A stretch of 64,000 bases of DNA from Bdellovibrionales bacterium GWA1_52_35 (GTDB lineage Bacteria > Bdellovibrionota > UBA1018): positions 41,623 to 105,622 of the forward strand of contig MEPO01000011.1 of NCBI GenBank assembly GCA_001769805.1. Reading direction: 5' to 3'. The notes under the pieces are model-generated. The model ran no database searches and had not been told where the DNA came from. It saw only the letters and a program-made list of their open reading frames with translations. Positions 28,230-54,531 of this stretch are shown here, in pieces. Every line of letters begins with the position of its first letter. Position 1 is the first letter of the stretch. A program made the position numbers and the translations under genes.

Positions 28230-28285
28230 AAGTCTACTTTACTACGAACCAAAGTGGAGTCAAGTCCACTTTAGTATCAAAGGGA

Positions 28286-29233: not shown

Positions 29234-29324
29234 GTTCTTGATCCTACCATTTCATAATGGGAAATCCATCGCGCTGCCTTGAATATATGATGTCAACGGC
29301 ACGGCTTTCGAATAAAACTTCCTG

Positions 29325-29708: not shown

Positions 29709-29718
29709 GGAAATACGA

Positions 29719-30771: not shown

Positions 30772-30780
30772 AGCGGAGCA

Positions 30781-32001: not shown

Positions 32002-32038
32002 TTGCCCCCCCGTAGCCTTTCAGGTAAACCCGACTTCT

Positions 32039-33969: not shown

Positions 33970-33972
33970 GGA

Positions 33973-38406: not shown

Positions 38407-39369
38407 ATGAGAACCGCCCTGATTACCGGCAGCCAAGGACAGGACGGCAAGCTTCTGTTCGAGCTTCTCAAGAGCAAGGGTTATGGCGTGCTTGGCCTCG
38501 ACCTGAATAAAACGGAGGCACATGGAGTTCAAATTCCACTACCTGCCTCAACTGATCTGACCATCAGCAAAGAGGTAATTGCCCTGGTTGCACAATTCCA
38601 ACCGGATGAAATCTACCACCTTGCAGCGGTACATCATTCTTCGGAGGAAAACTCCTCCGAGAATGCCTCGGCATTCCGCCGGGCTTATGAGGTCAATTTT
38701 TTTGCGCTGATTAACCTGCTTGAGGGTGTGCGCCTGCATTCACCGCAGACCCATGTTTTCTACGCTGCGTCTTCACATATTTTTGGCCATTCTGAAGCGG
38801 ATATCCAGGACGAATCCACCCCGCTCAATCCTGACTCGCCTTACGCATTTTCAAAAGTCGATGGACTTCAGGCCAGTCGACTTTACCGCAGCAAGTATGG
38901 AATTCATGCCTCAGTCGGTATTTTGTACAATCACGAATCAGAATATCGGGCTTCAAAATTTCTATCCAAAAAAATCACCTCCGCCGTCGTTAGAATTAAT
39001 AACGGAAGCAACGAGAAATTGACGCTAGGCGATCTTTCGGCGGTGATCGACTGGGGCTACGCCCGGGACTATGTGGAGGCAATGCACAGAATCAACACAC
39101 TCACGGAATCACCGGAGTCCGATGATTTCATTGTTGCTAGCGGCACGCGGCACACCGTCGAGGACTTTGTACAAACGGCCTTTCGTCATGCCGGTCTGGA
39201 TTGGCGCTCGCATGTTGTTGAAAACCCTTCTTTGCTTGGCCGCCGTAATCCGCTCCGAATTGGCAACCCTGTAAAATTAATGAAGCGGACAGGCTGGACG
39301 CCTTCCGTATCCTTCGAGCAGATGATCAAATTGCTGTTGATATCCGAAGGACTTCCAATTGATAAATGA
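38407..39369 (+). CDS. Gmd/Rmd-family short-chain dehydrogenase (GDP-4-keto-6-deoxyhexose reductase-like)
   Basis: ALITGSQGQDGKLLFELLKSKGY is Gmd-like. SPYAFSKVDG..LY is the YxxxK region. YNHESEYRASKF is present and no dehydratase-type insertion is seen. 320 aa. Confidence 0.75.
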   Translation: MRTALITGSQGQDGKLLFELLKSKGYGVLGLDLNKTEAHGVQIPLPASTDLTISKEVIALVAQFQPDEIYHLAAVHHSSEENSSENASAFRRAYEVNFFALINLLEGVRLHSPQTHVFYAASSHIFGHSEADIQDESTPLNPDSPYAFSKVDGLQASRLYRSKYGIHASVGILYNHESEYRASKFLSKKITSAVVRINNGSNEKLTLGDLSAVIDWGYARDYVEAMHRINTLTESPESDDFIVASGTRHTVEDFVQTAFRHAGLDWRSHVVENPSLLGRRNPLRIGNPVKLMKRTGWTPSVSFEQMIKLLLISEGLPIDK

Positions 39370-39382
39370 AACTGAGCGCCCT

Positions 39383-40855
39383 ATGAAAAATCCACTCGTT
39401 TTTGTTCCCACTTACAATGAAAGTGAAAATGTTCGCACCCTTTGCGCGCAATTACTGGATTTGAACACAGACCTCGATATTCTTTTCATGGATGACAACT
39501 CTCCGGATGGTACCGGCAAGGTGCTTGAGGAACTCTCAAGTCAGCACCCGAATGTCAAAGTCGTCCATCGCCCGGGCAAGCTTGGTGTCGGAAGCGCGCA
39601 TTTCGACGGTATTCAATGGGCTTATGCGAACGGCTATCAGCGACTCATCACCATGGATTGTGACTTCACCCACCCCCCTCATTACATCCTGGACATCATC
39701 AAAGTTGAGAATGCCGATATCGTAGTGGGCTCCCGTTATTTGAAAGAAAAAAGCCTCCGTGGCTGGAACCTGCTCCGGAAGACCTTGACGAGAACCGGGC
39801 ACTTTTTGACCAAGACCCTTCTGGGTATGGACTATGATGCGACCGGCGGCTTCAGGATGTACAGGCTGGACCGGCTGCCACGGGGCTTGTTTTCTCTGGT
39901 CGGTTCCAAAGGGTATTCGTTTTTTTTCGAGAGCCTTTATGTGATTCACTTCAACAAATTCCTGATCTGCGAAATTCCGATTTCGCTCCCGCCCCGTACT
40001 TACGGCCACTCCAAAATGACCCTTGCCGAAGTTAAACGGAGTGTGAAACTTCTGTTTTCCATTTTCATGAACCAGCTTCTTTATCCCGAGCGCTTTCTGC
40101 TTGCAGGCGGTGTGGACGTCGCCGTCAACCCGGCCTTGAATGACCCCCAGGGTTGGGAAGAGTACTGGAAGGCGCAAAAAATTTCGACCGGTGGAATTGT
40201 GTATGATTCAATCGCCGCATTCTACCGGAAATTTATTATCAAACGCACGCTGAACTATTTTGTTCGCAAGTATTTTACCAAAGGCTCAAGGATTCTTCAT
40301 GCCGGGTGCGGCAGTGGCCAGGTCGACACAGATATTTCAAAGCACGTGTCGATTACCGGCATGGATATCTCGGTCAACGCCCTCCGTTATTACGGAAAAC
40401 TGAATCAGAACTGTGCAACCCTGCACGGAAGCATTTTCAGCATCCCGCTACCGGATCGCTCCGTGGATGGTATTTACAATCTTGGGGTCATGGAGCATTT
40501 CACGGAGAAGGAAATTTCCGAGATTTTTTCGGAATTCAAACGGGTACTGAAAGACGATGGTCGCATGATCATCTTCTGGCCTCCTGAATTCGGAGCCAGC
40601 GTGATTTTTCTCAAAGGCGTCAAATGGGGGCTTGAAAATATTTTTGGCAAAAAAGGTGTTAAAATTCATCCCGACGAGATCACCCGGGTACAATCCAAAG
40701 AACACGTGGCCCGCCTTTTTCAAAAAGGTGGATTCATGGTGACAAAATACTATTTTGGTCCGATGGACTTCTTTACGTACTCCGTGATCATTGCCGACAA
40801 GCACTCGCTGTCGACTGCAAAAGAGCCGCTGGTTGCACTCGGCCCTACGGTTTAA
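39383..40855 (+). CDS. Fusion protein: polyprenyl-phosphate mannose synthase (DPM1/Ppm1-like GT2) N-domain plus class I SAM methyltransferase C-domain
   Basis: The N-domain has VFVPTYNESENV, FMDDNSPDGT and ITMDCDFTHPP (the DPM1 signature; compare MDADLSHHP). The C-domain has ILHAGCGSGQVD...GMDIS (motif I) and ..LKDDGRMIIF... No TM segments. Confidence 0.75.
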   Translation: MKNPLVFVPTYNESENVRTLCAQLLDLNTDLDILFMDDNSPDGTGKVLEELSSQHPNVKVVHRPGKLGVGSAHFDGIQWAYANGYQRLITMDCDFTHPPHYILDIIKVENADIVVGSRYLKEKSLRGWNLLRKTLTRTGHFLTKTLLGMDYDATGGFRMYRLDRLPRGLFSLVGSKGYSFFFESLYVIHFNKFLICEIPISLPPRTYGHSKMTLAEVKRSVKLLFSIFMNQLLYPERFLLAGGVDVAVNPALNDPQGWEEYWKAQKISTGGIVYDSIAAFYRKFIIKRTLNYFVRKYFTKGSRILHAGCGSGQVDTDISKHVSITGMDISVNALRYYGKLNQNCATLHGSIFSIPLPDRSVDGIYNLGVMEHFTEKEISEIFSEFKRVLKDDGRMIIFWPPEFGASVIFLKGVKWGLENIFGKKGVKIHPDEITRVQSKEHVARLFQKGGFMVTKYYFGPMDFFTYSVIIADKHSLSTAKEPLVALGPTV

Positions 40856-42323
40856 GATTAATTCCAGAATAACAGCTGTAAGCCGGACGCCCCGGGCCCG
40901 CTGCAAAGTCGCGTCTTTTCTCAAATGATTCAGGATGGCTCCGCTCTGAATCTTTGGCCCAGCAACCCGCCTGCTTTTTGCCTGTAGGATCGAAGTACGG
41001 AACCGGCTTCCAGTCCGACCAAAGTGAATTCAATGCAAGTCGGTTCTTGGAATAGAATTTAAGCGGCCAATAGCTTGCGTAACCATCAGAGTAGGCCACA
41101 CAAGTGCCAGACGGACACTCATCCATTAGCCAGGCAGCCGCAGGCTTGAGTGGGTCTTCTTGCTTTGCGAATTGGACAAGAGGCAAAGCCAATCGCACAA
41201 GAAAAAACAAAAACAGACCTCCAAGGACCACCCAAGCGCGAAGTCCTTCGATTGTGAAGCGTTGCCGTGCCCGGAAAAGCAAATCGCTCTGCAGGAAAAT
41301 CCATCCGGGAAGTAAAGATAGAAAATATCGCTCAGTTCCAAGATCCATCAAGGTCCGTCCACGGTAGCACATAAACAGTAGAAACAACGTTCCGGCGCCA
41401 GTTGCGAGTCCGTGGTGCAAGAAATGCCGGTCGAGGCGATTTGTGCGTCCTTTCACGAGTACGCTGAAATGCCAGACAAAAGCGCCGATCAGCAGGATTA
41501 AGAACCCCACGAGAAGAAACACAGGCGCTGCATCCTTTGTAAGCATGAACCTGAAAGGTTGATGACCGCTGAGGATGTTCAGAAAACTTCGTACCTCGAT
41601 ATACCAATGCACTCCCGGAGTCGCCGATATGGGTAAGGGGAAATTCCGCATAACCGGCCAAGCGAGACCAATCAGAAGCGCCAGCCCGAGCGCAAAGTGG
41701 TGAAAGCGTCGCCGGGCACCGGCAACAAGATGTCTCAGTACTGGAAGGAATATGGCTCCAAGCCCAACGACTGCTGTGATATGTGCCTCAATTGCAAGTC
41801 CAGCAAGTAATGCGATCCTTAGCCACCGGACTTCCGAGGTTCGGTGAACCCGGAGAGCTTCCGCAAAGAGCACCAAGAACAATCCCAGCATAAAGGATTG
41901 TGGAAAAGCCACGCGCGAAAAAACAAGAACCATTGGACTGATCGACAGAACAAAGGCAAAACTGCTTTTACGTTCGGGAAACTGCTGCTCAATTTCACGG
42001 TAGAGAACCCAAGCCCCCCAGGTGACGGCAATCAGCGGCACAGCCCTGAAGAGCCATGGGCTGGGATTCATGCCCAGGATCGAATGAAATATTGTAAAAA
42101 TAGAGCCCAGAATCCAAAAATCCAAAGGACCTTCGTAGGGAACCAAGGGGTTCAGAGCCGGCCATTGGCCGTGCGTGATCTTGCCAAGCTCTTCCACGAT
42201 CAGCTGATACAGGGTTTCGTCAGCATTCAGGCTCATAATATTAAGAGTGAGCACCTGAAACACAAGTACGACTACCGGCGCGAAGAGCGCCCAGCGCCAA
42301 GGATCCATTTTCAACTTCTTCAT
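40845..42323 (-). CDS. Polytopic membrane protein (492 aa; candidate GT-C-fold glycosyltransferase)
   Basis: At least 11 hydrophobic segments and a soluble C-terminal domain of about 110 aa. The first periplasmic loop carries ..SLNADETLY... Confidence 0.45.
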   Translation of the reverse strand: MKKLKMDPWRWALFAPVVVLVFQVLTLNIMSLNADETLYQLIVEELGKITHGQWPALNPLVPYEGPLDFWILGSIFTIFHSILGMNPSPWLFRAVPLIAVTWGAWVLYREIEQQFPERKSSFAFVLSISPMVLVFSRVAFPQSFMLGLFLVLFAEALRVHRTSEVRWLRIALLAGLAIEAHITAVVGLGAIFLPVLRHLVAGARRRFHHFALGLALLIGLAWPVMRNFPLPISATPGVHWYIEVRSFLNILSGHQPFRFMLTKDAAPVFLLVGFLILLIGAFVWHFSVLVKGRTNRLDRHFLHHGLATGAGTLFLLFMCYRGRTLMDLGTERYFLSLLPGWIFLQSDLLFRARQRFTIEGLRAWVVLGGLFLFFLVRLALPLVQFAKQEDPLKPAAAWLMDECPSGTCVAYSDGYASYWPLKFYSKNRLALNSLWSDWKPVPYFDPTGKKQAGCWAKDSERSHPESFEKRRDFAAGPGRPAYSCYSGINLKP

Positions 42324-42395: not shown

Positions 42396-44300
42396 TTGAG
42401 AACACGTGCAGTAGCTTTTGTATTCCAGATGAAACCCAAGAACCTCTCTCCTTCTCGCGAATTTTTCGTCTTCCTCTCAGGAGTCGTGCTGATTCTGGCC
42501 TACTGGATTTTGGTCAAACCCTTGAATCCGGGACCCGGGTACTTTGAGGACTTCTGTATCGAAATGAGTCGACGGGCCATGTCCGATTCAATCGAGCGCT
42601 TCGGGAAACCCACATTTGTTACAGACCTCTTCATGGCACCGTTCGGGATGCCGGTTCCCTTTTTCTCCTGGTCCATTGAGCGCGACTGGATGGGTGCGTG
42701 GTTTTGGAAATGGAATAAGTTCTTTCCTTTTATTTGGGCTTACTTCCTCGCCTCCCTGTTTCTCACGTATGCAGCGCTCGGCTATATTTTCAAGAAAATG
42801 AAACTGAGTGCCAGCTGGGCTTGGGCGATCGCAGCGCTGATTTGTGTCTTCAATATTCCGCGGCACTTCAAAATTTGGTACCACATCGAATATCTGGCGC
42901 AACATTGGCTGGTGATTTCCATTTTCCTCGACGCCTGGATCTGGGCCAAATGGACTCGCGAACGCAAATGGTCCTGGATTCTGGAACTCTGGCGGGCTTT
43001 CCTGATCCTGGCGGTCTTGGGTACGCCGGGCTACTTTTGGGCCATGTCCGCTCTCGTCTGGATGATCTTGCGTCTGAGCATGCTCCTTTCACTCCGAAAA
43101 CCTCAGGGAATGTCACTGCAGATCGAAGGCTCCTGGAGAGCGGCGATTCTTCCTTCGGTGCTTTGCCTGCTTTGGCTGTCATTTGAGCTGCGCTGGTTTA
43201 TTCCTCTCATCACCGAAATGCGGAAGCTCGGAACGGTTTCGCAGGGGCTCGGTTGGTGGGCAAACATCGGGTATGTATTCAGACCTCTTTGGCTTGATAT
43301 TTTAGCGGGCCCTCTGGCTTTCAGTCATATCCTGGCACCTCTGGACAGGCCCGAGACTGTTGTAACCGCCGGATGGTTCTATTGGGTTCCTGCCGTCACC
43401 GCCTTGGTTTTGCTTCGAAAAAAAGCGGGTGGTTCCGGATTAAAGACAGTTTTTCCTTTCGTCCTGCTCTTGGTTTTGACCATCGCCTACTTTGCATCCG
43501 AGCCGATCTTCAAGCAAGTGCGCTGGCTGATTCACTGGCCCATGCAGCATCTTGTGCCATTCATGTCGTTCTTTCGCGCGACGAGTCGCTGGGGAATTGT
43601 TCTGCCCTATTTTCTTGGTGCGATCATCATTCTGAGCTGGCCGGAGCTTTCTGCCTGGGCGAAGGCGCTGTATAAAAGACGGCCTAAAATGGTCAACGCT
43701 GTCGTTGCCGTATTCGCCTTGTCTTCAATTGCGGAAGCGGCATGGCTATTCCACCCCGTGATGATGCAACCGCCTCTGGCTTCTTCCATGGTATCGCTTC
43801 TTGATCAGGTTCGCGCGAAACCGGGTACCACCGTGCTTGACATGCCTTTCTGTGTCGCGGGCGGAAACGGCGTCTGCACCGCTGAGCAATGTCCGAATTA
43901 CCCCCTGTCCACCGTTTCTGGATGCCTGAGCAGCTGGCACGACAAGAAAATATACGGGCTTTATCAGGCGCGTCTTGCCCCCGAACAATGTCAATATTAC
44001 GGAAAAGCACCATTCACTCACTGGTTCTCCGCCTGGAAAGAACAGCGCTGCCTGAGCGATGACGAGTGGCAGGAGTTCTGTACCTATCTCGAGGGACAGC
44101 CCGACATTTCTTCCATCCTGATTTATCCCGATATCTGGAAAGCTGCGGGCCACCCCGCCTGCCGAGCTGAAATTGAACAGCGCTTGGGCGCACCTTTGGC
44201 CGAGTCAGTATTTCTCGCCCGTCCCACGCGAGGCGGTGCGGGTTCTGATCCTTCCAGAATCTGGCTATTCCCCGGGAAATGCTCGACTCAGGCGCGTTGA
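42396..44300 (+). CDS. Polytopic membrane protein with C-terminal Cys-rich extracytoplasmic domain (paralogue A)
   Basis: 634 aa. It has about 11 TM segments and a C-terminal domain of about 170 aa with 8 Cys (PFCVAGGNGVCTAEQCPNYP...SGCLSSWH..QCQYY...QRCL...EFCTYL...HPAC). It aligns along its whole length with 50881-52788. Confidence 0.55.
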   Translation: MRTRAVAFVFQMKPKNLSPSREFFVFLSGVVLILAYWILVKPLNPGPGYFEDFCIEMSRRAMSDSIERFGKPTFVTDLFMAPFGMPVPFFSWSIERDWMGAWFWKWNKFFPFIWAYFLASLFLTYAALGYIFKKMKLSASWAWAIAALICVFNIPRHFKIWYHIEYLAQHWLVISIFLDAWIWAKWTRERKWSWILELWRAFLILAVLGTPGYFWAMSALVWMILRLSMLLSLRKPQGMSLQIEGSWRAAILPSVLCLLWLSFELRWFIPLITEMRKLGTVSQGLGWWANIGYVFRPLWLDILAGPLAFSHILAPLDRPETVVTAGWFYWVPAVTALVLLRKKAGGSGLKTVFPFVLLLVLTIAYFASEPIFKQVRWLIHWPMQHLVPFMSFFRATSRWGIVLPYFLGAIIILSWPELSAWAKALYKRRPKMVNAVVAVFALSSIAEAAWLFHPVMMQPPLASSMVSLLDQVRAKPGTTVLDMPFCVAGGNGVCTAEQCPNYPLSTVSGCLSSWHDKKIYGLYQARLAPEQCQYYGKAPFTHWFSAWKEQRCLSDDEWQEFCTYLEGQPDISSILIYPDIWKAAGHPACRAEIEQRLGAPLAESVFLARPTRGGAGSDPSRIWLFPGKCSTQAR

Positions 44301-44308
44301 AGTCTTGC

Positions 44309-45937
44309 TCAGTTCTTGACGAGCAAGACGACGTCTTTTCCAGAAAGCCGGTCCACGGCAATGGCGCTGCGGGTACAATTTTCTGAGACTTCCTGCCAAC
44401 TCGGCCCGTTCACGGAAGGCTCAGAGGTCATTTTTTCGATCATGCCCCGGACCTGCTCGGGATTCATTTCCCACCTGGAAATCGTTGGCGTGAGTAAAAG
44501 ATAATTGATCGACTTCCACATGGAATGAGTCGGTGGTGGAAATTTTTCGCTCAAGATCGTTTCTTCAAAGCCGGTCTCTCCAAAAGGCGTCCGTAGTACC
44601 CCAATCAGCGCGGGCGAGACAATCCCTTTGGCATTTGAACTGGGTAAGCATTTCAGAAGTGCCTGCGTATGGGATCGAAGATCTTGGGCAGCCGAAGAGG
44701 GAACGGTAAAAAACGGCGCACCACTCCCGAGAGCCAGAACCGAGAATAACAACCAGCTCCGCTTCCCCGGCATGAGTGCGACCGCAAGCCAAAAGCCGCC
44801 GAGCAAAGATGCGGAGTAATAATTCACAAGTGTTGCAGGCTGCCCGCCTAAAGTGGCCAGGACTGCTGCAATCGGAAGCACCCAGAACCAAAAGCGGGCT
44901 TTAAGTGAAACCCAGGGAGCAAATATCAAAAGCGAAAGCCAAGGTCGTGAAACAAGAAAAAATGCGATTTTTCGCAAGACAGAAGTAATATCCAGATCAA
45001 CGGCCCGGAGATACGGCATTGCCGAAGGAAGCTGCACAGCCATTCCCGAAAATTCCTGAACTCCCCATTCTCCTGTACTGAAGCGACGGATGGATAGAAA
45101 CAAAACCGTACTGATAGCTGATCCCAGCAAGATCGCCGCCACTGATGAAAAGAGTTGTGTCTTCGCGCGTTTTTGCCAGACACTTGCTGCAAACCAGAGA
45201 AGGACCGGGAATAAAATAAAAGGCGCATCCACCTTGGTCCCAAAGCCAAGGAGAATCCCGGCCATCCACGCCCAGTGGCGTAGCTTCCCATCGGCGACTC
45301 CCAATCCCCAACAAGTCAGCAAAACAGAAAATGGATAAACGACCTCAGGGTGAACATCGTAACCCAGGATTCGCCCCACCTGCGTGGACGACAGGAAACA
45401 GAACGCAACAATCCAGGCACCCAGCGGTCCCCACAAGGGTTTGGCCAAATTGGCAAGAACCACAGCAGCAAACGCGAGTGCAAGCGGTGCCAGAAGCAGT
45501 GCTGTTAATGTGGACCCGAAAAGCCACGTCAGCGGCAGAAATCCATAAAGGCTCCAGAAAGGATGAACGGCTCCATGCTGCATGAGCCCCGTCGTTTGTG
45601 GAGCAAAGTGAGTGAGAAATGGCACTCCTTTAACGAGGCTCCTGAGCATGTCCTCAAAAAGCCAGAAATCCTGCGCGTTGAGTGTAAGGGAGTACCATTG
45701 CAAAAATTTCTGAAAAGCTCCTATTGCGGAAAATGCCAGGGCGAGAATCCAGACGCTCGCATGGAAGTGGCTTTGAAGGGCTTTTGAAGCCCGCTCTTCC
45801 CAAGCAGTCCGGAGCGAACCGAGGCGGGTACGCAAGGCTTCGGGAGCGAAACGACTGGCCAGAACCACGCAAGCAAGAGCAATAGCCCCGGCCCACAAGA
45901 TCCACCGCAAACGAAGTTCGAGCTCAACGAGATTCAT
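44309..45937 (-). CDS. Polytopic membrane protein (about 542 aa; candidate GT-C-fold glycosyltransferase)
   Basis: Start taken at the internal ATG (MNLVELELRL...) to avoid overlap with the divergent gene. At least 12 hydrophobic segments and a soluble C-terminal region of about 110 aa. Confidence 0.45.
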   Translation of the reverse strand: MNLVELELRLRWILWAGAIALACVVLASRFAPEALRTRLGSLRTAWEERASKALQSHFHASVWILALAFSAIGAFQKFLQWYSLTLNAQDFWLFEDMLRSLVKGVPFLTHFAPQTTGLMQHGAVHPFWSLYGFLPLTWLFGSTLTALLLAPLALAFAAVVLANLAKPLWGPLGAWIVAFCFLSSTQVGRILGYDVHPEVVYPFSVLLTCWGLGVADGKLRHWAWMAGILLGFGTKVDAPFILFPVLLWFAASVWQKRAKTQLFSSVAAILLGSAISTVLFLSIRRFSTGEWGVQEFSGMAVQLPSAMPYLRAVDLDITSVLRKIAFFLVSRPWLSLLIFAPWVSLKARFWFWVLPIAAVLATLGGQPATLVNYYSASLLGGFWLAVALMPGKRSWLLFSVLALGSGAPFFTVPSSAAQDLRSHTQALLKCLPSSNAKGIVSPALIGVLRTPFGETGFEETILSEKFPPPTHSMWKSINYLLLTPTISRWEMNPEQVRGMIEKMTSEPSVNGPSWQEVSENCTRSAIAVDRLSGKDVVLLVKN

Positions 45938-46028
45938 AGGTATTATCGGCGATCTAACCACAACGAAGCATCTTTTAAAATGAAATTGACTAGACGCGGC
46001 GACCACTGCAACAGTAGCGAGAACGGCT

Positions 46029-47681
46029 ATGAAGAAATATTCAGCTCTCCTATTTGACGTGGTGATCGCGGTCCTGCTCGGGCTGTCTCTGAGTGGAGGC
46101 ATCGAGTGGGACGGTAGAACGATCCTGCGCCATGCGGCCGATCCGCGTCGCGCAGCCCTGATTCTGCTGGGCCTCGGGTATTTCTTTGTTCAGGAATTTA
46201 AAGTGCGAAGCATCTTCCTTCGTCTGGCCTCGCTTCTGATTCACAAACTCTCGACGATTCCTCATTGGCGTTGGGGATTTTTTGGCGCGGCATTTCTGCT
46301 CGCGGAAACGCTGTCGATCCTGCAGGTCCTGGCGCTCCGGGTTCGCCTTTATGACGTTGGGATTTTTCACCAGATTCTCTGGAGTCTGACTGAAGGTCTT
46401 GGCTTCCACAGTACGATCAGTGGGGCTGGCAATTTCTTGCTGGATCACTCAGCGGTATCGGTCGCACTCCTCGCGCCCTTTGCCTGGTTATCCGGGAATT
46501 CACCGCTATTTCTGCCCATCTTGCAACCCGTACTGCTATTCGGCGGGGCCGCTGCGTGGATCAGACTTGCCGAAAGATTGCCCGCTGTTTCGATCGAAAT
46601 TCGTGGTCGAATCGCAGCATATACGTTACTTGTGGTCGTCAGCTTTCAAAGCATCTGGGGAAATATTGAGTGGGGTTTCCACGAAAATGCCATCGCCTTC
46701 TTTTCACTCTCCTGGGCTTTCACGTGGATGTACCTGGGGAAGAACACCTGGGTCACGGGTCTGTTGCTGCTGATTGCCGCCGGTTCTAAAGAGATCTTGC
46801 TGGTCAGTGTCGGTTTTGGATTTTTCTTCTGGGCCTCTCTGAGCTGGAAAGACCGGGCCCGGGCCTGGCCGGGCATGCTTTCTAAGGTCGTAACGGGGAT
46901 TCTTTTAATCGCGCTCTTTGTGTTCTTCGAGAAACTTCCGCACCCGGCGGATAAAAATTATTTTCTCCGTTATTATTCATATCTGGGAACGGGACTCACT
47001 GATTTCTTCAAAACCCTTCTGCTGAATCCCTTCAGTGTCGTGCAAAACGTCGGAGCAGTGGAGCTGGCGAACTATTTTAAGACCGTTTTTCTTCCCTGGC
47101 TTGGAATCCCCCTGCTGCTCTCGGTTTGGCCGCGCGCACGGCCCGTCCGAAAATGGGGAGGACTCCTGCTTGTTATCCTTCCCTCTTTTGCAAGTGCCGC
47201 AATCGCGACTTACCCACCGCTTCGAGGCATAAATTATCATTATGTTCTGGAGCTCTGGCCTGCTTTGGCGGTCAGCACTTTAATTGGAATTTCATTTTTC
47301 AGAGAAAGTGCCATTCGGCGTATTCTGCAGATCTGGCTACTCCTTGCCCTTCTGGGGCTTGACTTCGATCCGATTTCCTCGATTCGGGAGAACTTCTCAG
47401 GTGCGATCCGTCAGAGTGACGCCCGCCAGGCCATGAGCAACATTCCAAACGAGAGCACGGTCATGGCAGACGAATTGGCCGGAACCTGGGTGGCGGGACG
47501 CAGGATCGTCACCCGATGGCCGGATCTCCATTTCCTGGAAAATGGCTGTCCCGATTGGCTCGTGCTTGAACGATCACAGGATAAAGACAACCAGAAGTCG
47601 CAAATATTCACTTGCCCGAACAATCGCAAACCGGTGCTTCAGTGGGAGCACGGCGATTGGGCCGCGTACCGGCTGCTCTGA
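46029..47681 (+). CDS. Polytopic membrane protein (550 aa; candidate GT-C-fold glycosyltransferase)
   Basis: About 12 hydrophobic segments and a soluble C-terminal domain of about 100 aa. Confidence 0.45.
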   Translation: MKKYSALLFDVVIAVLLGLSLSGGIEWDGRTILRHAADPRRAALILLGLGYFFVQEFKVRSIFLRLASLLIHKLSTIPHWRWGFFGAAFLLAETLSILQVLALRVRLYDVGIFHQILWSLTEGLGFHSTISGAGNFLLDHSAVSVALLAPFAWLSGNSPLFLPILQPVLLFGGAAAWIRLAERLPAVSIEIRGRIAAYTLLVVVSFQSIWGNIEWGFHENAIAFFSLSWAFTWMYLGKNTWVTGLLLLIAAGSKEILLVSVGFGFFFWASLSWKDRARAWPGMLSKVVTGILLIALFVFFEKLPHPADKNYFLRYYSYLGTGLTDFFKTLLLNPFSVVQNVGAVELANYFKTVFLPWLGIPLLLSVWPRARPVRKWGGLLLVILPSFASAAIATYPPLRGINYHYVLELWPALAVSTLIGISFFRESAIRRILQIWLLLALLGLDFDPISSIRENFSGAIRQSDARQAMSNIPNESTVMADELAGTWVAGRRIVTRWPDLHFLENGCPDWLVLERSQDKDNQKSQIFTCPNNRKPVLQWEHGDWAAYRLL

Positions 47682-47684
47682 ATT

Positions 47685-48701
47685 TTACCAATAATGAGAT
47701 TGATGCTGGCGGTAATAGTCATGAGTTCGCTCAATTCCATCTGCCAGCTGTATCTGGGGATTCCAGGCCAGAACTTTCTTGAGCTTGGTAATATCTGAAA
47801 CATAGTCGCCGGTCTCAACATTGATGTAGGCCTCGGGCCAGGGCACGAATTGCACCTGGCCTTTGCGGACGACTTTCACGATGGTTTCGACCATCTCCTT
47901 GAAGTGGGTCCCGATTCCGCTACCGAGATTGAAGACCTCGCCAAAGCACCCCTCGGTGACTGCGCTTTGAATCATGGCATCGGCAAGATCGTCAACATAG
48001 ATATAATCTCGCACCTGCTCACCTGTCCCAAAGACTTTCAAGGTATGACCTTCCATCGCCTGACGAATAAACCAGTTGATCATCGAATATTTGTTATGTC
48101 GCATCTGCGAGCGCGGTCCATAGGGATTGGCGATCCGGAAGAGGACACAGCGGATGCCATGAATCTGGTGGTAAAAGAGGTAACTGTTTTCGGCCGCTGT
48201 CTTGTTCAGGGCATACGGCGTGCGGGGGCGGAGTGGATGCTTTTCGTCGACCGGATTGTATTCGATCTTGCCGAACTGAAGTCTCGAGCCCGAATGGATG
48301 ATGACCGCCTCCGGGCTGTGGCGACGCACATTTTCCAGGACATTCAGATGCCCGATATAATTGATATCGGCATCGAGCGCGGGATTCTGCATACTATCGT
48401 TATGGCTGACTTGCGCGGCAAGATTGAAGATGATGTCCTTGCCTTGCACCAGGGCCTTCATGGCTTCGGTGTCACGAATATCACAAACGCTGACGGTCAC
48501 CTGCTCACGAATTCCTTCGATATTAAAAAGATTCGCACCGTAAACAGCACTGTTCACGTCCGCGAGCGTGACGTTCGCCCCACCCTGGACCAGCTTCCTG
48601 GCAATAGTGGTGCCGATCATTCCGAGCCCGCCGGTGATCAGAACGTTCTTTGACCGGAATTTATCGCCAATCGGATGCATCACGGGCTTTTCCCTGAACA
48701 A
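47685..48701 (-). CDS. NAD-dependent epimerase/dehydratase (extended SDR)
   Basis: Rossmann VLITGGLGMIGTTIARKL and catalytic ..TPYALNKTAAE..Y (YxxxK) are present. 338 aa; the first ATG may be internal at MHPIG. Confidence 0.75.
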   Translation of the reverse strand: MFREKPVMHPIGDKFRSKNVLITGGLGMIGTTIARKLVQGGANVTLADVNSAVYGANLFNIEGIREQVTVSVCDIRDTEAMKALVQGKDIIFNLAAQVSHNDSMQNPALDADINYIGHLNVLENVRRHSPEAVIIHSGSRLQFGKIEYNPVDEKHPLRPRTPYALNKTAAENSYLFYHQIHGIRCVLFRIANPYGPRSQMRHNKYSMINWFIRQAMEGHTLKVFGTGEQVRDYIYVDDLADAMIQSAVTEGCFGEVFNLGSGIGTHFKEMVETIVKVVRKGQVQFVPWPEAYINVETGDYVSDITKLKKVLAWNPQIQLADGIERTHDYYRQHQSHYW

Positions 48702-49674
48702 CGTTCAGCTTGGTTTTCACGATATACTTGGGCCGCTGTTTCACTTCATCGTAAATTCGAGCAATGTACTCACCGATGATGCCGATAGCGACAAGCTGCA
48801 GCCCCGAAAGAAAAAGGACTGCAACGGTGAGATAAGCCCAGCCCGGTACATCCGGAATATGTCCGGTCAATTTGCCGTAAACAATCCGGATACTTTCTTC
48901 GATACTGAGAATTGCAACCAGTACCCCGATAAAAGTCACGTACTTCAGCGGTTTGTATGAAAAAGAAAAAATTCCGTTGAAAGCGAGTTCGAAATATTTA
49001 TTGAGACTATACCCGGATTCGTCAGCAAAACGCGCGCAGCGCTCGTACTCGACTCCAGTCTGTTTGAACCCGGACCAGGCCCGCATTCCGCGCAGGTACC
49101 GGTTGTTCTCCGGCATGGAGACCAGGATTTCGCGAACACGAGCGGACATCACGCAAAAATCACCGGCATCGTTCGGAATCTTGGTATCCATCAACAATCC
49201 CGAAATCCGGTAAAAAAGGCGGTAAAGGGCGCGGTGAACCAAAGAACGCTTCCGCTTTCGGCGCACGCCATAGACCACATCAAACCCTTCCCGCGCTTTT
49301 GCTACAAACTGGGGAAGAATTTCTGGCGGGTCTTCCAGGTCATCGTCAATGATGGCAACCCATTTTCCGCGAGCGTGATTCAGGCCTGCCGTCAAGGCGG
49401 CCTGGTGACCAAAATTTCTGGAAAATTCGAGCACTTTCAGCCTGGAATCCTGAGCTGCGCGTGCGCTGATCACCTCGAAAGAAGCATCACGGCAGCCATC
49501 CAAAACGGCAATGATTTCAAAAGTTGAGAAGGCCGGCTCCAGAGCGGTAATCAGTCGCTTGTAGAGTTCCGGAAAAATATTTGCTGAATTATAGATCGGC
49601 ACAATGACCGAAAAGTCAGGCGAAATTTCGGAGTGGGAGGCACTGTTCGGCTGGAGTTCATCGGAAGTTGCCAT
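48661..49674 (-). CDS. GtrB/ArnC-like polyprenyl-phosphate hexose synthase (GT2 with C-terminal TM pair)
   Basis: Has FSVIVPIYNSANIF, LDGCRDAS and AIIDDDLEDPPEIL. Two C-terminal TM helices are present (FIGVLVAILSI, LQLVAIGIIGEYIA). Confidence 0.8.
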   Translation of the reverse strand: MATSDELQPNSASHSEISPDFSVIVPIYNSANIFPELYKRLITALEPAFSTFEIIAVLDGCRDASFEVISARAAQDSRLKVLEFSRNFGHQAALTAGLNHARGKWVAIIDDDLEDPPEILPQFVAKAREGFDVVYGVRRKRKRSLVHRALYRLFYRISGLLMDTKIPNDAGDFCVMSARVREILVSMPENNRYLRGMRAWSGFKQTGVEYERCARFADESGYSLNKYFELAFNGIFSFSYKPLKYVTFIGVLVAILSIEESIRIVYGKLTGHIPDVPGWAYLTVAVLFLSGLQLVAIGIIGEYIARIYDEVKQRPKYIVKTKLNVVQGKARDASDWR

Positions 49675-49766
49675 AGGTTAAAACTGTTGAAATACTAATG
49701 ATATCGGTGAGTCAAAGTCAATCTTTAGTAGCAACCTGACTGAGTTTGCACTAGTTTTGAAACAGC

Positions 49767-50891
49767 ATGACCAACCAGGTGACCGTGATATTTCTGCTTT
49801 ACAACGCCGAGGATACAGTCCGGGCGCTCGTTGATTCAGCCCTGGGCCAAAAGTCCGCTCCCGAGAGCCCTCCTGCAACAATACTCTTTGTCGATGATTG
49901 CTCGAAGGACCGGACTCTGACTGTGCTCAAAGCTTATTTAGAAGAGAAGGGCAACCCAAAACATATCCGGTGGATTTCCCATGAACAGAATTTCGGGCTC
50001 TCACGCACTCTAAATGAAACTTTTGAGGCGCTCGAAACCCCTTACGCGCTGACCTGCCATTGCGACTGCTTTTTCGGGCGGGAGGATTACGTTGCCCAAA
50101 TGGTAACCCTGATGGACGCCCATCCCGAAGCCGCCACCATAACCGGCCAGCCGCAGATTTCTCCCACTGGCCGAATTCCTTTCGCCGAGAAGGTAAGCTT
50201 GACCGAAAACCTGATGGACATATTTCAAAAGCCGATTCCTCCCGGTGTCAGTCCCGAACAGTGGGTGATCCCCGTGGGCTTTGCCGAAGGGCGTTGTGAT
50301 ATTTTCCGTAAATCAGCACTCCAAGCAGTTGGCTATTATGATACGACGGTACGTCTTTCTGGCGAAGATCAACTGATTGCAGCCCGCATGCGGCAAAAGG
50401 GGTTTGCAATTTATCAGGCCCCCGCAATGCCTTACACCCTTTCTGTCTCTGATTCCCAAAACAGCACCTGGAAGTTGCTCAAGCATCAGCACCTGCTGGC
50501 GCGAACATCTCCTTACGTCATGTTCAAGAATCGCGAGACCCTGCAAGGAATGGTCGGGGAGACCGCTGGAAATAATCGCAAAAAACGAACCCTGCTCCGG
50601 CTTCATCATCTTTTCAGTTCTGTCGTTTACTGCTGGCTTGCCCTGTTTATGATTCTGGGCCTGAGCCCGCAACACAGAGCTTTCTGGATTCCACTATTGC
50701 TGGTGATTGCAATCAAGGCCTGGCTTTTTGCTGATCATTGCCCGGCAACGCGGATGAAACCACTGGATCTGGCTGGATTTGCGCTCCTGCAGCCTCCTTT
50801 TGACTTGATTTATACCGTCGGATTCACCCAAGGACTCTACGCAACTGCTCTCTTGAAAATTTTCCCCGACCGAAAGCACACTATTCAGTAG
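49767..50891 (+). CDS. Membrane-anchored family 2 glycosyltransferase
   Basis: Has VTVIFLLYNAEDTV and FVDDCSKDRT. C-terminal hydrophobic segments are present (LFSSVVYCWLALFMILGL, IPLLLVIAIKAWLF). Confidence 0.7.
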   Translation: MTNQVTVIFLLYNAEDTVRALVDSALGQKSAPESPPATILFVDDCSKDRTLTVLKAYLEEKGNPKHIRWISHEQNFGLSRTLNETFEALETPYALTCHCDCFFGREDYVAQMVTLMDAHPEAATITGQPQISPTGRIPFAEKVSLTENLMDIFQKPIPPGVSPEQWVIPVGFAEGRCDIFRKSALQAVGYYDTTVRLSGEDQLIAARMRQKGFAIYQAPAMPYTLSVSDSQNSTWKLLKHQHLLARTSPYVMFKNRETLQGMVGETAGNNRKKRTLLRLHHLFSSVVYCWLALFMILGLSPQHRAFWIPLLLVIAIKAWLFADHCPATRMKPLDLAGFALLQPPFDLIYTVGFTQGLYATALLKIFPDRKHTIQ

Positions 50892-52788
50892 CCGCTTTTC
50901 TGCATTTTGGAGCGTAATGCCAGATCCTTGCGGACTGCTCGCCCTCTCCGCCTCTGGGTCCCTTTCGCGTGGCTTCGGCAAAATAATAGCCCTGCTGGAC
51001 CGGAGCCCCCAGATGTTTTTCGAATTGCGCCACACAGGCCGGGGTTCCGGCCGCCTTCCAGATATCCGGATAAACCAGTACGGCTGAGGTCTCAGTATGG
51101 GTATCGAGATAACGGCAGAGTTCATCCCATTCCCCTTCGGCAAGACAGCGCTGGTCTTTCCAAGCTGAAAACCAGGACAAATACGGACTGCGATTGTAAA
51201 TCTGGCATTGAACATCAGTCAGGCGCGATTGATAGAGACCATAGACTTTCTTCTCATGCCAGCTGCTCAGACAGCCAGAAATAGTGGAATTCGGGTAATT
51301 GGGGCACTGTTCGGAAGTACAGACTCCATTTCCGCCCGCCACGCAGAACGGCATGTCCAGAACGGTTGTTCCAGGCATTTTCTGGATGTTTTTTAAAAGA
51401 GTTTGTGACGACTCTAGAAGCGGCGGTTGCATCAGCAGCGGCTCAAGAAGCCAGGTTAGCTCGACTGCTGCGATCAGAACAAAGCTTAGCAATACGGTTC
51501 TCGAGAAACGCCGATGAACTTTATGATTCCACTGGATCCTGATCCAGCCCGAAATTTCTGGCCAGGCCAGCACAATCATCACGGCGGCGAAATACGGCAG
51601 GAAATGTCCCCAACGTGAGGCCACACGGAAGAAAGTCATGAAGGGGATCAGCGTCCGAACCGGCCAATGGACCAAAGGAAAGGGACCAAAACCAAAATAG
51701 GCAATCGCAAGAAGCGTCAAAAATACAAAGGGCCCGATGACTTTGATTCCGGGTCCGCCTTTTTTACGCCTTAACAGATAAGCCCCGAGCAAAGCCGGGA
51801 GCCAGTAAACCCAACCAATCGTCACAACTGTTTCGGGTTTATTGATCGGAGGCCACCCGAGAGACATCCCGGACCACTCCAAGATCCGTTCCAGCCAAAG
51901 CGGGCGGATTACGTTCAAGGGATTGGCCCACCAACTCATCGGTTGGGGAATCGTGCCCAACTTTCTCATCTCGGTGACGAGCGGAATAAACCAGCGCAAC
52001 TCAAAGCTGATCCAGATCATGCAAAGAACGAGTGGCAAAACAGCATCACGCCAACGCCCCTCAATCAGAATTTCAGGCAGAATTTCAGATCGCCTCTTTC
52101 GCTGCCAGGCATAAGGCAGAAGCGCCAGCATGAAGCCACGCACTACGACCCATTCCAGAGCCATCGGGCCCCAAAAATATCCAGGCGAACCCAGCACCGC
52201 GACCAGGAGGAATATTCGCCAAAGTTCGAGGTTCCAGGACCATTTCTGATGCCGGATAAACCGCTGCCAGATCCAGGCATCCAGAAAAATACTGATGATC
52301 GCCCAGTGCTGGGACAGGTATTCAACGTGATACCAGGTGGCAAAATGCCGCGGCACATGAAAGGTGACGAAGAATGCAGAAAGCATCCAGGCCGGAAGCC
52401 GCTGAAGGCCCATTTTTGAAAGGATGAAACCCACACTCAAATATGACAGCAGGAGTGCCGCGAGATAATAGATCCAGATGAACGGAAACTCTTTCCATTG
52501 CCAGAAGTACGCGCCCAGCCAGTCCCGCTCAATGGACCAGGAAAAGAACGGAATCGACATTCCAAAAGGAGCCATGAACAAATCAGAGCTGAACTCCGGC
52601 TTTCCGAAACGAAAAAGATTGTCTGCCATTGCGCGGCGACTCATGTCCCAGCAAAAATCCTCGAGATAACCCGGGCCCATATTCAGAGGACGGACCCAGT
52701 ACCAATAGATCAGAACAAAAATCAGGCCCGTCAGGAATGGTAAAAGTGAACCAATCAATCCTCGAATTGCCAAGCTTCTCGAGCTCAA
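50881..52788 (-). CDS. Polytopic membrane protein with C-terminal Cys-rich extracytoplasmic domain (paralogue B)
   Basis: 635 aa and collinear with 42396-44300. Shared stretches include PLNxGPGYxEDFCxxMSRRAM, LFMAPFGM, FFSWSIERDW, ISIFLDAWIW and GTTVLDMPFCVAGGNGVCT.EQCPNYP. All 8 C-terminal Cys are conserved. Confidence 0.55.
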   Translation of the reverse strand: MSSRSLAIRGLIGSLLPFLTGLIFVLIYWYWVRPLNMGPGYLEDFCWDMSRRAMADNLFRFGKPEFSSDLFMAPFGMSIPFFSWSIERDWLGAYFWQWKEFPFIWIYYLAALLLSYLSVGFILSKMGLQRLPAWMLSAFFVTFHVPRHFATWYHVEYLSQHWAIISIFLDAWIWQRFIRHQKWSWNLELWRIFLLVAVLGSPGYFWGPMALEWVVVRGFMLALLPYAWQRKRRSEILPEILIEGRWRDAVLPLVLCMIWISFELRWFIPLVTEMRKLGTIPQPMSWWANPLNVIRPLWLERILEWSGMSLGWPPINKPETVVTIGWVYWLPALLGAYLLRRKKGGPGIKVIGPFVFLTLLAIAYFGFGPFPLVHWPVRTLIPFMTFFRVASRWGHFLPYFAAVMIVLAWPEISGWIRIQWNHKVHRRFSRTVLLSFVLIAAVELTWLLEPLLMQPPLLESSQTLLKNIQKMPGTTVLDMPFCVAGGNGVCTSEQCPNYPNSTISGCLSSWHEKKVYGLYQSRLTDVQCQIYNRSPYLSWFSAWKDQRCLAEGEWDELCRYLDTHTETSAVLVYPDIWKAAGTPACVAQFEKHLGAPVQQGYYFAEATRKGPRGGEGEQSARIWHYAPKCRKAATE

Positions 52789-52815: not shown

Positions 52816-54531
52816 ATGAACAATCTGAAAAGCAGTTTAAGACGGCGCTGGATTCAAAGCGACCTAAAAGTCAAATTGCTCAGCATCCTGCTTGGACTGA
52901 TCCCGGTGGGAATTGCGCTTTGGGTCTGGTTATCACCACTGGCTTTTGTTCCGGTGCCCTGGCCTGATGACTCAGCCTTCTATTTCGTCGGACGCGACTT
53001 TTTTCAGTGGCCCCCCCGCTGGGTAATGATTCCTCAAGCTCCGTTTGAACCCTCCTATCGGATTTTCAATTTCAATACGATGCCTCTTTACCCGATTCTG
53101 ATCGGATTGGGTCGCTTCGTTGGAATCGATGGAAGTTTTGGAATTAAATTCTGGCCACTTTGTGCCTGGGCTTTGACGGGCTCCCTCCTTTCTGTTGTGC
53201 TTTTTCGTTCAGGTCTTCCTATTCTCATTTCGGCACTCCTTGGGCTTGCGGTCGGTCTGGATCCGATCCTTCGTTGGGCCTCGGTCCTGGTGCGGCCCGA
53301 ATCTTTGATTGGTCTGATCGGGATGGCGTTGGTCCTGGGTCTGGCTTTAGGTATTCCTGCAAAATTCAGAACCAAAGGACTCTGGGATCCCGTCGCAGCC
53401 CTTCTGGCTTTGGCCGCTTATTCACATTTCAACGCCATTCATCTGCTTTTTCCGGTAATTGTTTTCCATTTCCTGGAACCCCTCCGTCTTTTTGCCATTG
53501 CCTGGCGCACGGCGCTCTACCTGCTACCCTGGCTGGTCCTTGTCCTGTGGCATTGGGGCTTGTTCGTTCATCAGATGACTACCCAGTGGACGCGACTGGC
53601 GGTTGCCAACAATTGGCTCGATTCAATCGCCTCGGCAATCAACGGCCTGCTTCAGAACCTTGGCAGTCCGGAAGCCTGGCCCGCTCAGATTTACTTGCTG
53701 GGAATGGGCCTCTGGCTCCTGATTTTTTGCGCGGCGGTTTTTGCTCTTTGCGATTTGTATCTGGCCTTCTGGAAACCAGAGCGCAGAACAACGCGGCGTC
53801 TCGCTCCAGCAGCAACCTGGGTGCTCAGCTCAGTCTGGCTCTGGCATACCAAGCCTGAAGTCTGGTTCGTCTATTACATCCATATTGCCCTTTGGTGCTT
53901 CGCGGGCCTTGTACTGCTGGAAGCATGGCGAAACCGGAAACAGTTTTTCGGAAAATTCACCTTTGCCGCAGGAGCCCTCCTCCTTGTCACGCTCACCTCC
54001 GTTTCCGGCTATGTCGACGGCGTGCAGTTTATAAAATTGCGCTCGTCTTCTTCCTGGAACAGGGACACCTACCACGAATTCATCAGCTGCATCGATCAGC
54101 GGCTCGAAGAGGAATGGCGGCGCGTTCGTGCAATATTGCCCGACAGAACTTTCACAGTCTGGAACCCGACTTTTCCCGATGTGACGGTCGAGCTTTCACG
54201 CAGACATCCCGACTGGGAGTTCACCCGCACGAACGACTTTTCAGAAAGAAGCCAGTTGGCTTTGCAGCACGGGCGGGACGTGGACGCAGTCGTCGTCTCG
54301 GAAACCCTGCAATGGCAGGAGCGCGACATTTCCGGTCCCCTTGAAGAGCATCCTGAGATCAGTTCCGTCTGGATGAACTGGGGTGGCTATTTTCTGAAGA
54401 CGTTGTGGACCGAAAAAGGATGGAAGCCGGTACGTTATTTATGCCAGAGAGGCCGCTGGCAGGCCTTCATGTTCATGAACGCACCCAGACCAAGGCTCTC
54501 CACTCATTCAGCTCCCGGCGAACAGGAGTAA
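52816..54531 (+). CDS. Polytopic membrane protein (571 aa; candidate GT-C-fold glycosyltransferase)
   Basis: About 12 hydrophobic segments, followed by a soluble domain of about 160 aa. The first loop carries PWPDDSAFYF. Confidence 0.45.
   Translation: MNNLKSSLRRRWIQSDLKVKLLSILLGLIPVGIALWVWLSPLAFVPVPWPDDSAFYFVGRDFFQWPPRWVMIPQAPFEPSYRIFNFNTMPLYPILIGLGRFVGIDGSFGIKFWPLCAWALTGSLLSVVLFRSGLPILISALLGLAVGLDPILRWASVLVRPESLIGLIGMALVLGLALGIPAKFRTKGLWDPVAALLALAAYSHFNAIHLLFPVIVFHFLEPLRLFAIAWRTALYLLPWLVLVLWHWGLFVHQMTTQWTRLAVANNWLDSIASAINGLLQNLGSPEAWPAQIYLLGMGLWLLIFCAAVFALCDLYLAFWKPERRTTRRLAPAATWVLSSVWLWHTKPEVWFVYYIHIALWCFAGLVLLEAWRNRKQFFGKFTFAAGALLLVTLTSVSGYVDGVQFIKLRSSSSWNRDTYHEFISCIDQRLEEEWRRVRAILPDRTFTVWNPTFPDVTVELSRRHPDWEFTRTNDFSERSQLALQHGRDVDAVVVSETLQWQERDISGPLEEHPEISSVWMNWGGYFLKTLWTEKGWKPVRYLCQRGRWQAFMFMNAPRPRLSTHSAPGEQE

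Follow-up and report, generated by a model that had tools for sequence, protein, structure and literature searches.

The 64-kb stretch of DNA analyzed here (the window) carries two related genes in inverted orientation, which we call paralogue A (42396..44300, + strand, 634 aa) and paralogue B (50881..52788, - strand, 635 aa). The host is an uncultured groundwater bacterium of the Bdellovibrionota. Both proteins have the predicted architecture of a membrane glycosyltransferase from an unnamed family, with a GT-C fold, about 11 transmembrane (TM) helices, and an N-in/C-out topology. The C-terminal periplasmic alpha/beta domain of A comprises residues 455-634 (43758..44297, + strand). In B, the TM part lies at about 51433-52788 and the soluble domain at 50884-51429, both on the - strand.

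The genes enclosed by A and B match the description given in an earlier note on this DNA. Two encode DUF2079 membrane proteins: one at 44309..46102 (- strand; longest ORF 597 aa, or 542 aa from the gene callers' start; PF09852, E 1.5e-11) and one at 46029..47681 (+ strand; 550 aa; PF09852, E 1.6e-25). They are followed by an SDR nucleotide-sugar epimerase/dehydratase (47685..48701, - strand), which matches Pfam Epimerase and GDP_Man_Dehyd and, below cut-off in each case, the NCBIfam models for dTDP-glucose 4,6-dehydratase, LegB and GalE. A GtrB/ArnC/PgfS-like GT2 polyprenyl-phosphate sugar synthase with two C-terminal TM helices (48661..49674, - strand) has its NCBIfam matches to PgfS (E 1.6e-72; 244 bits against an equivalog cut-off of 500) and ArnC (E 1.5e-45), both sub-cut-off. 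The second GT2 (49767..50891, + strand, 374 aa; Pfam Glycos_transf_2 and Glyco_transf_21) also has C-terminal TM helices and converges on B with an overlap of 11 nt. The cassette is flanked by two further multi-TM proteins. MEM_492 (40845..42323, - strand) has a weak match to Agl23 (TIGR03663, E 0.004). MEM_571 (52816..54531, + strand) represents a second unnamed Bdellovibrionota family with more than 170 homologues and no Pfam match; it was considered as a remote relative of A and B and rejected at an hhalign probability of 2.5%.

The earlier note had also proposed that A and B are collinear products of an old duplication, and both parts of this proposal hold. Open reading frames are present at both positions, and BLASTP aligned the proteins over 622 aa, from TM1 to the C-terminus, with 55% of residues identical and 71% positive (E=0). 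This result excludes chance similarity. The genes are 58% identical in nucleotide sequence and 36% identical at third codon positions, and the longest run common to both is 17 nt. Synonymous sites are saturated (pS 0.82) and dN is 0.39. Together, these values indicate that the duplication is old and that the paralogues have been under purifying selection. The 64-kb window contains no third copy of the family. Most genomes sampled carry a single copy, and pairs of the A/B type, about 45-55% identical, recur in at least four MAGs. Of the 70 positions with a conservation of 95% or more, A retains all and B retains 69. Loss of K159, which is Ala in the B clade, and the deviation of A at G216/P217/E221 suggest that the two enzymes may differ in specificity.

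A further suggestion, that the enclosed segment might be invertible, did not survive inspection. The inverted arms are 73-80% similar, are located within coding sequences and contain no long repeats. No recombinase gene is found in or beside the cassette, and its orientation is identical in four independent assemblies. Because recombinogenic repeats are missing and only one orientation occurs in these assemblies, we see no sign that the cassette inverts. We read the inverted arrangement as a fixed outcome of the old duplication, not as a switch.

Neither protein matched any model in Pfam (also at E≤10) or NCBIfam, where the ArnT, AftA, AftD and DUF2079 family HMMs gave no significant match, and the A/B profile matched no PDB sequence. 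The window's own DUF2079 proteins were not matched by the A1 profile (E 0.57). The Cys-rich C-terminal module was likewise blank in Pfam, NCBIfam and PDB sequences, as expected from the prior claim that it corresponds to no named domain; its sole sub-threshold match, to Pacifastin_I (E 0.1-0.2), was attributed to Cys spacing. A search of 1.84 billion representative proteins found some 250 relatives or clusters, all of them without a functional name. By fold, AftA is the top match of A and B, and AftD is the top match of the soluble domain; sequence identity is 8-12% to solved GT-C enzymes in general and was put at 10-13% for AftA (8if8) and AftD (6wbx). Both proteins have a multi-pass TM core with a GT-C fold and, judged by sequence position, conserved acidic residues in the first extracytoplasmic loop after TM1. 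The 'WWD' motif of the STT3/AglB/PglB (GT66) enzymes is absent from A and B, and neither has the Pfam PMT/PMT_2 match or the MIR domain of GT39/PMT proteins. A and B are members of a known superfamily, GT-C, and form a new family without a name.

A scan of species representatives with two short peptide patterns found 25 family loci, all from MAGs or Bdellovibrionota strains. A link between the family and the mannosylated lipid A of Bdellovibrio bacteriovorus was considered; records under that species name were absent from these loci, which is a weak negative, because the scan relied on two short patterns. Literature searches turned up nothing relevant on GT-C enzymes together with Bdellovibrio, and no papers on DUF2079.

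Conservation was assessed in a close-family alignment of 29 sequences, in which 52 columns are invariant, in samples of 85 or 89 homologues, and in a distant tier of 82 sequences, whose members score only 110-190 bits and carry the soluble-domain motif described below. A hand count on the model's secondary structure gave 11 TM helices, and loops 233-246, 343-347 and 425-432 fit the positive-inside rule. Fold, conservation and topology together predict a cytoplasmic N-terminus, which places all of the conserved polar residues on periplasmic loops. Directly after TM1, loop 1 carries E51-D52-F53-C54 (42546..42557, + strand), with D52 present in 84 of 85 sequences and E51 in 73 of 85; 'GxGDTxxWE' occupies the equivalent position in the distant tier. 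D52 is a candidate catalytic acid. Loop 1 ends in W92-S-I-E95-R-D97-W98 (42669..42689, + strand). W92 and E95 do not vary within the close family and are retained by 75 and 80 of the 82 distant relatives, respectively. A polar cluster, P155-R-H-F-K159...H163...H170-W171...D179-A180 (42858..42935, + strand), runs from loop 2 into the start of TM4 and is also kept at a distance (H170 and W171 81/82 each, D179 79/82, H163 73/82). Loop 5 contains P388-F-M-S-F-F-R394-A-T-S-R398 (43557..43589, + strand). Its two arginines occur in 82/82 distant sequences and P388 in 81/82, and all three are invariant in the close family. R394 and R398 are candidate phosphate ligands for a lipid-linked donor.

The fold weakly indicates that the soluble alpha/beta domain of about 180 aa sits in the periplasm atop the TM core, as in STT3, AglB and AftD. 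In 89 homologues, cysteines 486, 494, 499, 532, 552, 562, 589 and 629 never change or, for C494 and C532, change in one sequence each. The earlier note had listed eight conserved Cys, and all eight are indeed common to A and B and most are invariant; its 'GC' position, C510, is not a family-wide feature (68/89), and its pattern omitted the invariant C629 near the C-terminus and C54 in loop 1. The alignment also corrects the spacing between 'GC' and 'QCQ' from the proposed 30 to about 20 residues. C54 and C510 come and go together: among 85 sequences, 62 have both, 21 have neither and two are discordant. This co-variation suggests a fifth, inter-domain disulfide, and C54-C510 is the candidate bond joining the soluble domain to loop 1. 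C552 and C589 behave similarly in the distant tier (both in 57, neither in 22, discordant in 3; n=82). We propose, from invariance and co-variation rather than from geometry, that four disulfides form within the soluble domain and that the fifth ties it to loop 1 in most members. The conserved Cys and the C54-C510 co-variation would fit an oxidizing compartment.

Beyond its cysteines, the soluble domain is marked by the signature P484-F-C486-V-A-G489-G-N491-G...H515-x-K517...R526 (43845..43973, + strand). Among the 82 distant sequences, P484 is found in 82, C486 in 80, G490 in 76, N491 in 75, H515 in 80, K517 in 81 and R526 in 79. Because remote relatives retain this PFC-GGN / H-K / R motif, it more probably takes a direct part in binding substrate or in catalysis than marks a passive binding module. 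PFC-x2-GGN, H515-x-K517 and R526 may thus form part of the substrate site. The idea that the module is lectin- or CBM-like was rejected on the strength of its fold: we found neither a beta-sandwich, a beta-trefoil or another known CBM or lectin fold, nor a match to a CBM family. Most likely, the Cys-rich tail is the usual outer soluble domain of GT-C enzymes, stapled by disulfides, and a function in acceptor recognition is plausible.

Across the 25 loci, a recurring core order could be recognized: prmA, MEM_571, GT2, polyprenyl-phosphate GT2, family gene, MEM_492. Eleven of the 25 have a homologue of the polyprenyl-phosphate GT2, at 26% identity or more, no further than 10 kb from the family gene. 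The second GT2 adjoins the family gene in several loci (L001/L013, L006, L017, L021, L031), as does MEM_492 (L005, L018, L021, L030), and nine loci show synteny of MEM_571 with prmA and the family gene. Some loci (L003, L036) hold family members and no glycosylation genes. In the window itself, polysaccharide genes are abundant (Wzx, Wzy_C, WecA-like, rml, GMD), and up to seven GT-C-like membrane proteins are encoded in the locus. The ORFs of 100 aa or more at 35-55 kb included no GtrA, SMR or MATE flippase; a Wzx gene lies 38 kb upstream.

The combination of a GT-C enzyme, a lipid-linked donor and a GT2 synthase is a hallmark of periplasmic glycosylation (PMC11127046; compare the Pgf system below). 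We consider it probable that A and B arose by an ancient duplication within an unnamed GT-C family and act in the periplasm, where they would transfer sugar from a lipid carrier to an acceptor in the envelope. By gene context and analogy with other GT-C pathways, the adjoining GT2 (48661..49674) would supply the lipid-linked donor: the SDR enzyme would prepare a sugar, which the GT2 would load onto undecaprenyl phosphate at the cytoplasmic face. The lipid-linked sugar would then be flipped, and A and B would move the sugar to the acceptor. The most likely candidate acceptor is a surface polysaccharide or LPS produced by the window's large glycan locus. A bolder version, for which the odds are rather poor, would make A and B the founders of a new CAZy family in which the soluble domain, disulfide-locked to loop 1, provides catalytic or donor-phosphate residues (the PFC-GGN loop, H515, K517 and R526). 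Diverged pairs would act as heterodimers of the EmbA-EmbB or Pmt1-Pmt2 kind and would join five further GT-C-like proteins of the locus in an assembly line for periplasmic glycans, giving Bdellovibrionota a mycobacteria-like pathway.

Alternatively, A and B could be OST- or PMT-like protein glycosyltransferases whose soluble domain binds an acceptor peptide, as in STT3/AglB/PglB. We regard this as unlikely, because both proteins lack WWD(Y/W)G, a MIR domain and any Pfam STT3 or PMT match, their best fold match is a polysaccharide enzyme (with AftD best for the soluble domain), the surrounding genes are those of polysaccharide synthesis, and the neighboring GT2 falls well short of the PgfS equivalog cut-off. 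Even less probable is a GT-C-fold role as polymerase or ligase of Und-PP-linked glycans, or as a non-catalytic scaffold or flippase-associated subunit of a multi-GT-C complex. The crowd of GT-C-like proteins, with no recognizable dedicated flippase, would suit such a complex, as would the weak likeness of MEM_492 to the flippase-associated protein Agl23, and a (pyro)phosphate might be bound by the PFC-GGN loop, which comes after the first beta-strand in this Rossmann-like domain. Finally, a lectin- or CBM-like module on a gene pair bounding an invertible or variable cassette is scarcely credible: the domain is predicted to be extracytoplasmic and disulfide-rich, the genes are inverted to each other and certain GT-C enzymes are known to carry CBMs (EmbC, AftD, GT136; PMC11127046), but the fold, the missing long repeats and the single orientation largely refute it.

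Periplasmic transfer of a lipid-linked sugar, our preferred reading, overturns no concept. Its interest lies in a compact, sharply conserved family that has clear candidate catalytic residues, a soluble domain predicted to be unusually rich in disulfides, and no model in the libraries searched. GT-C families are still being founded, as with GT136 in 2024. Together with MEM_571 and other unannotated membrane proteins, A and B mark a probable pathway for envelope glycans that is typical of uncultured members of the Bdellovibrionota. Their characterization would extend CAZy and Pfam by a family and improve the annotation of Bdellovibrionota genomes.

Among known systems, the mycobacterial arabinofuranosyltransferases AftA (PDB 8if8) and AftD (PDB 6wbx) are GT-C enzymes that use decaprenyl-phosphate-arabinose. 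A and B come from a different phylum, lack Pfam AftA_N and GT-C_AftD matches as well as CBM domains, and carry a soluble domain that is predicted to be disulfide-stapled and whose PFC-GGN/H-K/R motif lies outside the definitions of those families. STT3/AglB/PglB enzymes have 13 TM helices rather than about 11, as well as the WWDYG motif and Pfam STT3 match that A and B lack, and they use an Und-PP-oligosaccharide, whereas the locus context here points to an Und-P-monosaccharide donor. The ED pair after TM1 recalls the PMT 'DE' motif as a resemblance only. Like the subunits of the Pmt1-Pmt2 (PDB 6p2r) and EmbA-EmbB heterodimers, A and B are diverged paralogues that are kept together, and two copies recur in at least four MAGs; most of the genomes sampled, however, show one copy. 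The cassette and its flanks also resemble the Streptococcus mutans Pgf system (PgfS GT-A, PgfE epimerase, and PgfM1/PgfM2 GT-C proteins of the YfhO family) in holding a PgfS-like GT2, an SDR epimerase and paired GT-C membrane proteins. Here, in contrast, the host is Gram-negative, the GT-C proteins belong to DUF2079 and an unnamed family instead of YfhO, the GT2 scores below the PgfS equivalog cut-off, and no Ser/Thr-rich adhesin genes were noticed. Compared with the GtrA/GtrB/GtrC, ArnC/ArnEF/ArnT and GT136 systems (PMC11127046), the cassette lacks a flippase gene of the GtrA, SMR or MATE type, there are several (up to seven) GT-C-like proteins in place of one, and the GT-C family falls outside those described. 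It nevertheless shares with these systems a GT2 synthase with two C-terminal TM helices that adjoins the GT-C enzymes, and a sugar-nucleotide-modifying enzyme within the cassette.

ORF A (42396-44300, + strand, 634 aa) and ORF B (50881-52788, - strand, 635 aa) are both open and encode paralogues that align end to end (55% identity, 71% positives, E=0). Their DNA is 58% identical, with only 36% identity at third codon positions. Because synonymous sites are saturated (proportion of differences 0.82), dN is 0.39 and the longest identical nucleotide run is 17, the duplication must be old and both copies under purifying selection. In a neighbour-joining tree, A groups with its orthologue P0002 (73% identity) and B with its orthologue P0004 (74% identity to B), and the two pairs form sister clades. 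This arrangement indicates that the duplication is confined to the present sub-lineage and older than a speciation. A retains 70 of the 70 positions with at least 95% family conservation and B retains 69, and each clade has departures of its own, seen in only two sequences per clade. K159 (numbering of A) of the loop-2 'PRHFK' motif, 94% conserved, is Ala in B and its orthologue, and in the A clade the family's G-P and E are replaced by A216-M217 and V221 (G216A, P217M, E221V). These sites are possible specificity determinants, and the two sequences per clade would fit a pair of active enzymes differing in specificity. K159 falls within 42858-42872 in A, with an equivalent in B.

Searches with both proteins against Pfam, NCBIfam and PDB-sequence models came up empty, even at E<=10. 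Predicted-model helices and the positive-inside rule point to 11 TM helices running from a cytoplasmic N-terminus to a C-terminus on the outside. Under this predicted topology, every conserved polar residue lies on a periplasmic loop or at its edge: E51-D52 and W92/E95/D97 on loop 1; R156-H157-x-K159, H163 and H170-W171 on loop 2, and D179 where TM4 begins; E320 on loop 4; and P388, R394 and R398 on loop 5. In GT-C enzymes, the classic site of the catalytic residue is an acidic motif right after TM1 (PMC11127046), and DXD is found in extramembrane loops. The earlier note had proposed a GT-C subfamily, and this proposal was right: A and B have a GT-C fold with conserved periplasmic loops, and the most fitting description of the pair is a new family, unnamed so far, inside the known GT-C superfamily.

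Only 254 hits came out of an exhaustive profile search that covered 1.84 billion representative proteins. About 50 full-length representatives form the close family, and those named by source come from Bdellovibrionota MAGs (Oligoflexia, Bacteriovoracia, Bdellovibrionales). A distant tier (110-190 bits, 590-1220 aa) is set apart below it by a clear gap in score, and here the profile match spans the TM part as well as the soluble domain; the tier's named sources are Leptospiraceae, Acidobacteriota and Oligoflexales MAGs. The distant tier contained no Pfam domain except an N-terminal TPR in one protein, and family members with a name in the source records are called 'hypothetical protein'.

Modelled alone, the C-terminal domain (pLDDT 89.5) is alternating beta/alpha and Rossmann-like, so the lectin or carbohydrate-binding module suggested earlier was not borne out. 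The model hints that this may be the membrane-proximal soluble domain typical of such GT-C enzymes, reinforced by disulfides. Its conservation is more telling than its fold. The close family shows no variation at P484-F-C486, G489-G-N491, H515, K517 or R526, and 75-82 of 82 remote relatives retain them; on this basis the motif probably marks an element involved in substrate binding or catalysis rather than a passive binding module. Eight cysteines are invariant or nearly so among 89 close-family sequences (C486, C494, C499, C532, C552, C562, C589 and C629, numbered as in A). The earlier list of eight had most of these positions, overlooked C629 and included C510, which is variable (68/89 sequences). 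C510 co-varies with C54, a first-periplasmic-loop residue two positions past the near-invariant E51-D52: both residues occur in 62 of 85 sequences and neither in 21, leaving 2 discordant, and the losses are scattered over several tree clades (Fisher P 6e-18, which is overstated since the sequences are related rather than independent). This joint presence or absence suggests an inter-domain disulfide tethering loop 1 to the soluble domain. Remote relatives keep C486 (80/82) and C499 (61/82), and C552 and C589 co-occur there (both 57, neither 22, discordant 3), whereas C494, C532, C562 and C629 are confined to the close family. All pairings are putative.

Domain matches and TM segments bore out the gene list drawn up earlier for the 6.6-kb A-B interval. 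It comprises two membrane proteins of the DUF2079 family, an SDR epimerase/dehydratase of nucleotide sugars, and two GT2 enzymes that both carry C-terminal TM helices. One of these, a polyprenyl-phosphate GT2 (48661-49674, -), has two such helices, and its best matches are PgfS (E 1.6e-72) and ArnC (E 1.5e-45); the other is GT2_374 (49767-50891, +). The idea that this cassette is invertible did not hold up, as we found no recombinogenic repeats or recombinase, and the window orientation is shared by all four independent assemblies of this organism from groundwater. Short contigs show the orthologue junctions to be kept, as MEM_492(-), A-orthologue, DUF2079a(-) and as MEM_571(-), B-orthologue, GT2_374(-), the latter including an 11-nt convergent overlap. 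The inverted layout appears to be a fixed gene order, not a switch. In the window, the convergent 3' ends of B and GT2_374 overlap at 50881-50891, as in the orthologous contig L031.

The recurring core, seen across 25 Bdellovibrionota loci in species-representative genomes, is prmA, MEM_571, (GT2_374), polyprenyl-phosphate GT2, family gene and MEM_492. The family gene is linked to a polyprenyl-phosphate GT2 homologue within 10 kb in 11/25 loci and to MEM_571 in 9/25. Some family members, among them those of L003 and the Leptospiraceae locus L036, lack glycosylation neighbours. Two diverged copies (45-52% identity) also occur in other MAGs, namely L020, JAMPXJ01 and JAYVOO01; they are intact and divergently arranged around the polyprenyl-phosphate GT2 and MEM_571 in L020 and lie on separate contigs in the others. 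Locus L025 (JBBCAV010000018.1, 'Bdellovibrionota bacterium FG-2') has prmA, MEM_571 and the family gene, and its strain-like name hints at an organism that may be in culture. MEM_571 itself (52816-54531, +) represents a second unnamed membrane-protein family with >170 homologues, nearly all in Bdellovibrionota, and is syntenic with prmA. It has no match in Pfam, NCBIfam or PDB, an invariant 'PVPWPDD' directly past TM1, a C-terminal soluble part and 55-60% conservation, above that of the A/B family; it is probably another GT-C-like enzyme.

The window is a very large glycan region. A Wzx/Wzy-type surface-polysaccharide locus (161-21336, 0-22 kb) encodes a DegT aminotransferase, Wzx, a WecA-like GT4, GMD, a fucose-synthase-like SDR, a Wzy_C/ligase-like protein and a GT1; three large multi-TM ORFs (7282-8952, 10578-12470, 12754-14391) have no Pfam match. 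Between histidine kinase/PGM genes and rmlB, the region is broken by a possibly inserted segment (27090-32001) with an AAA_14/DUF4143 ATPase, a FecR-domain protein, a zinc alcohol dehydrogenase and an HNH-endonuclease-like ORF. The region also holds rmlBADC (31940-35453), a C-methyltransferase and a GMD-like SDR. For a 416-aa ORF (37153-38403, +), the gene at the matching position (4758-6008) of an identical contig, L032, has Methyltransf_13/14 hits, which we take to mark sugar C-methyltransferases; as the ORF adjoins rmlBADC and the GMD-like SDR, it suggests a branched-chain deoxysugar. A similar gene accompanies the family member at locus L001. The GT2 domain of a GT2-class I SAM methyltransferase fusion (39359-40855, +) is weakly PpgS-, PgfS- and ArnC-like; PpgS is a polyprenyl-phospho-GalNAc synthase, and the fusion may act as a second synthase of polyprenyl-phosphate sugars and methylate as well. 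Farther downstream, a 1014-aa ORF (55460-58504, -), whose two ends carry very long low-complexity stretches, acidic and Arg/Gly-rich, looks from its translation alone like an RNase E/G-type protein.

We propose that a modified nucleotide sugar is the product of the SDR enzyme and that the polyprenyl-phosphate GT2 attaches it to undecaprenyl phosphate. Once the lipid-linked sugar is flipped, A and B would move it in the periplasm to an envelope glycan; protein is a less likely acceptor. The soluble domain, which disulfides would lock and, in the majority of members, also tether to loop 1, would supply part of the substrate site. The result is useful to annotation and glycobiology, and not surprising in kind. 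A and B are taken to work like the AftA/AftD-, ArnT-, Gtr- and PgfM-type GT-C enzymes, although they are not sequence members of any of these families, and they lack the hallmarks of OST and PMT. Up to seven multi-TM proteins with GT-C-like features lie at 35.4-54.5 kb: within 19 kb these are A, B, the two DUF2079 proteins, MEM_571, ORF456 (35438-36808, +; unannotated, with 'WAEDADEF' past TM1) and MEM_492 (40845-42323, -; unannotated, with weak matches to Agl23, E 0.004, and Alg9-like, E 0.44), alongside three GT2 enzymes. This GT-C-like/GT2 cluster is reminiscent of mycobacterial periplasmic glycan assembly.
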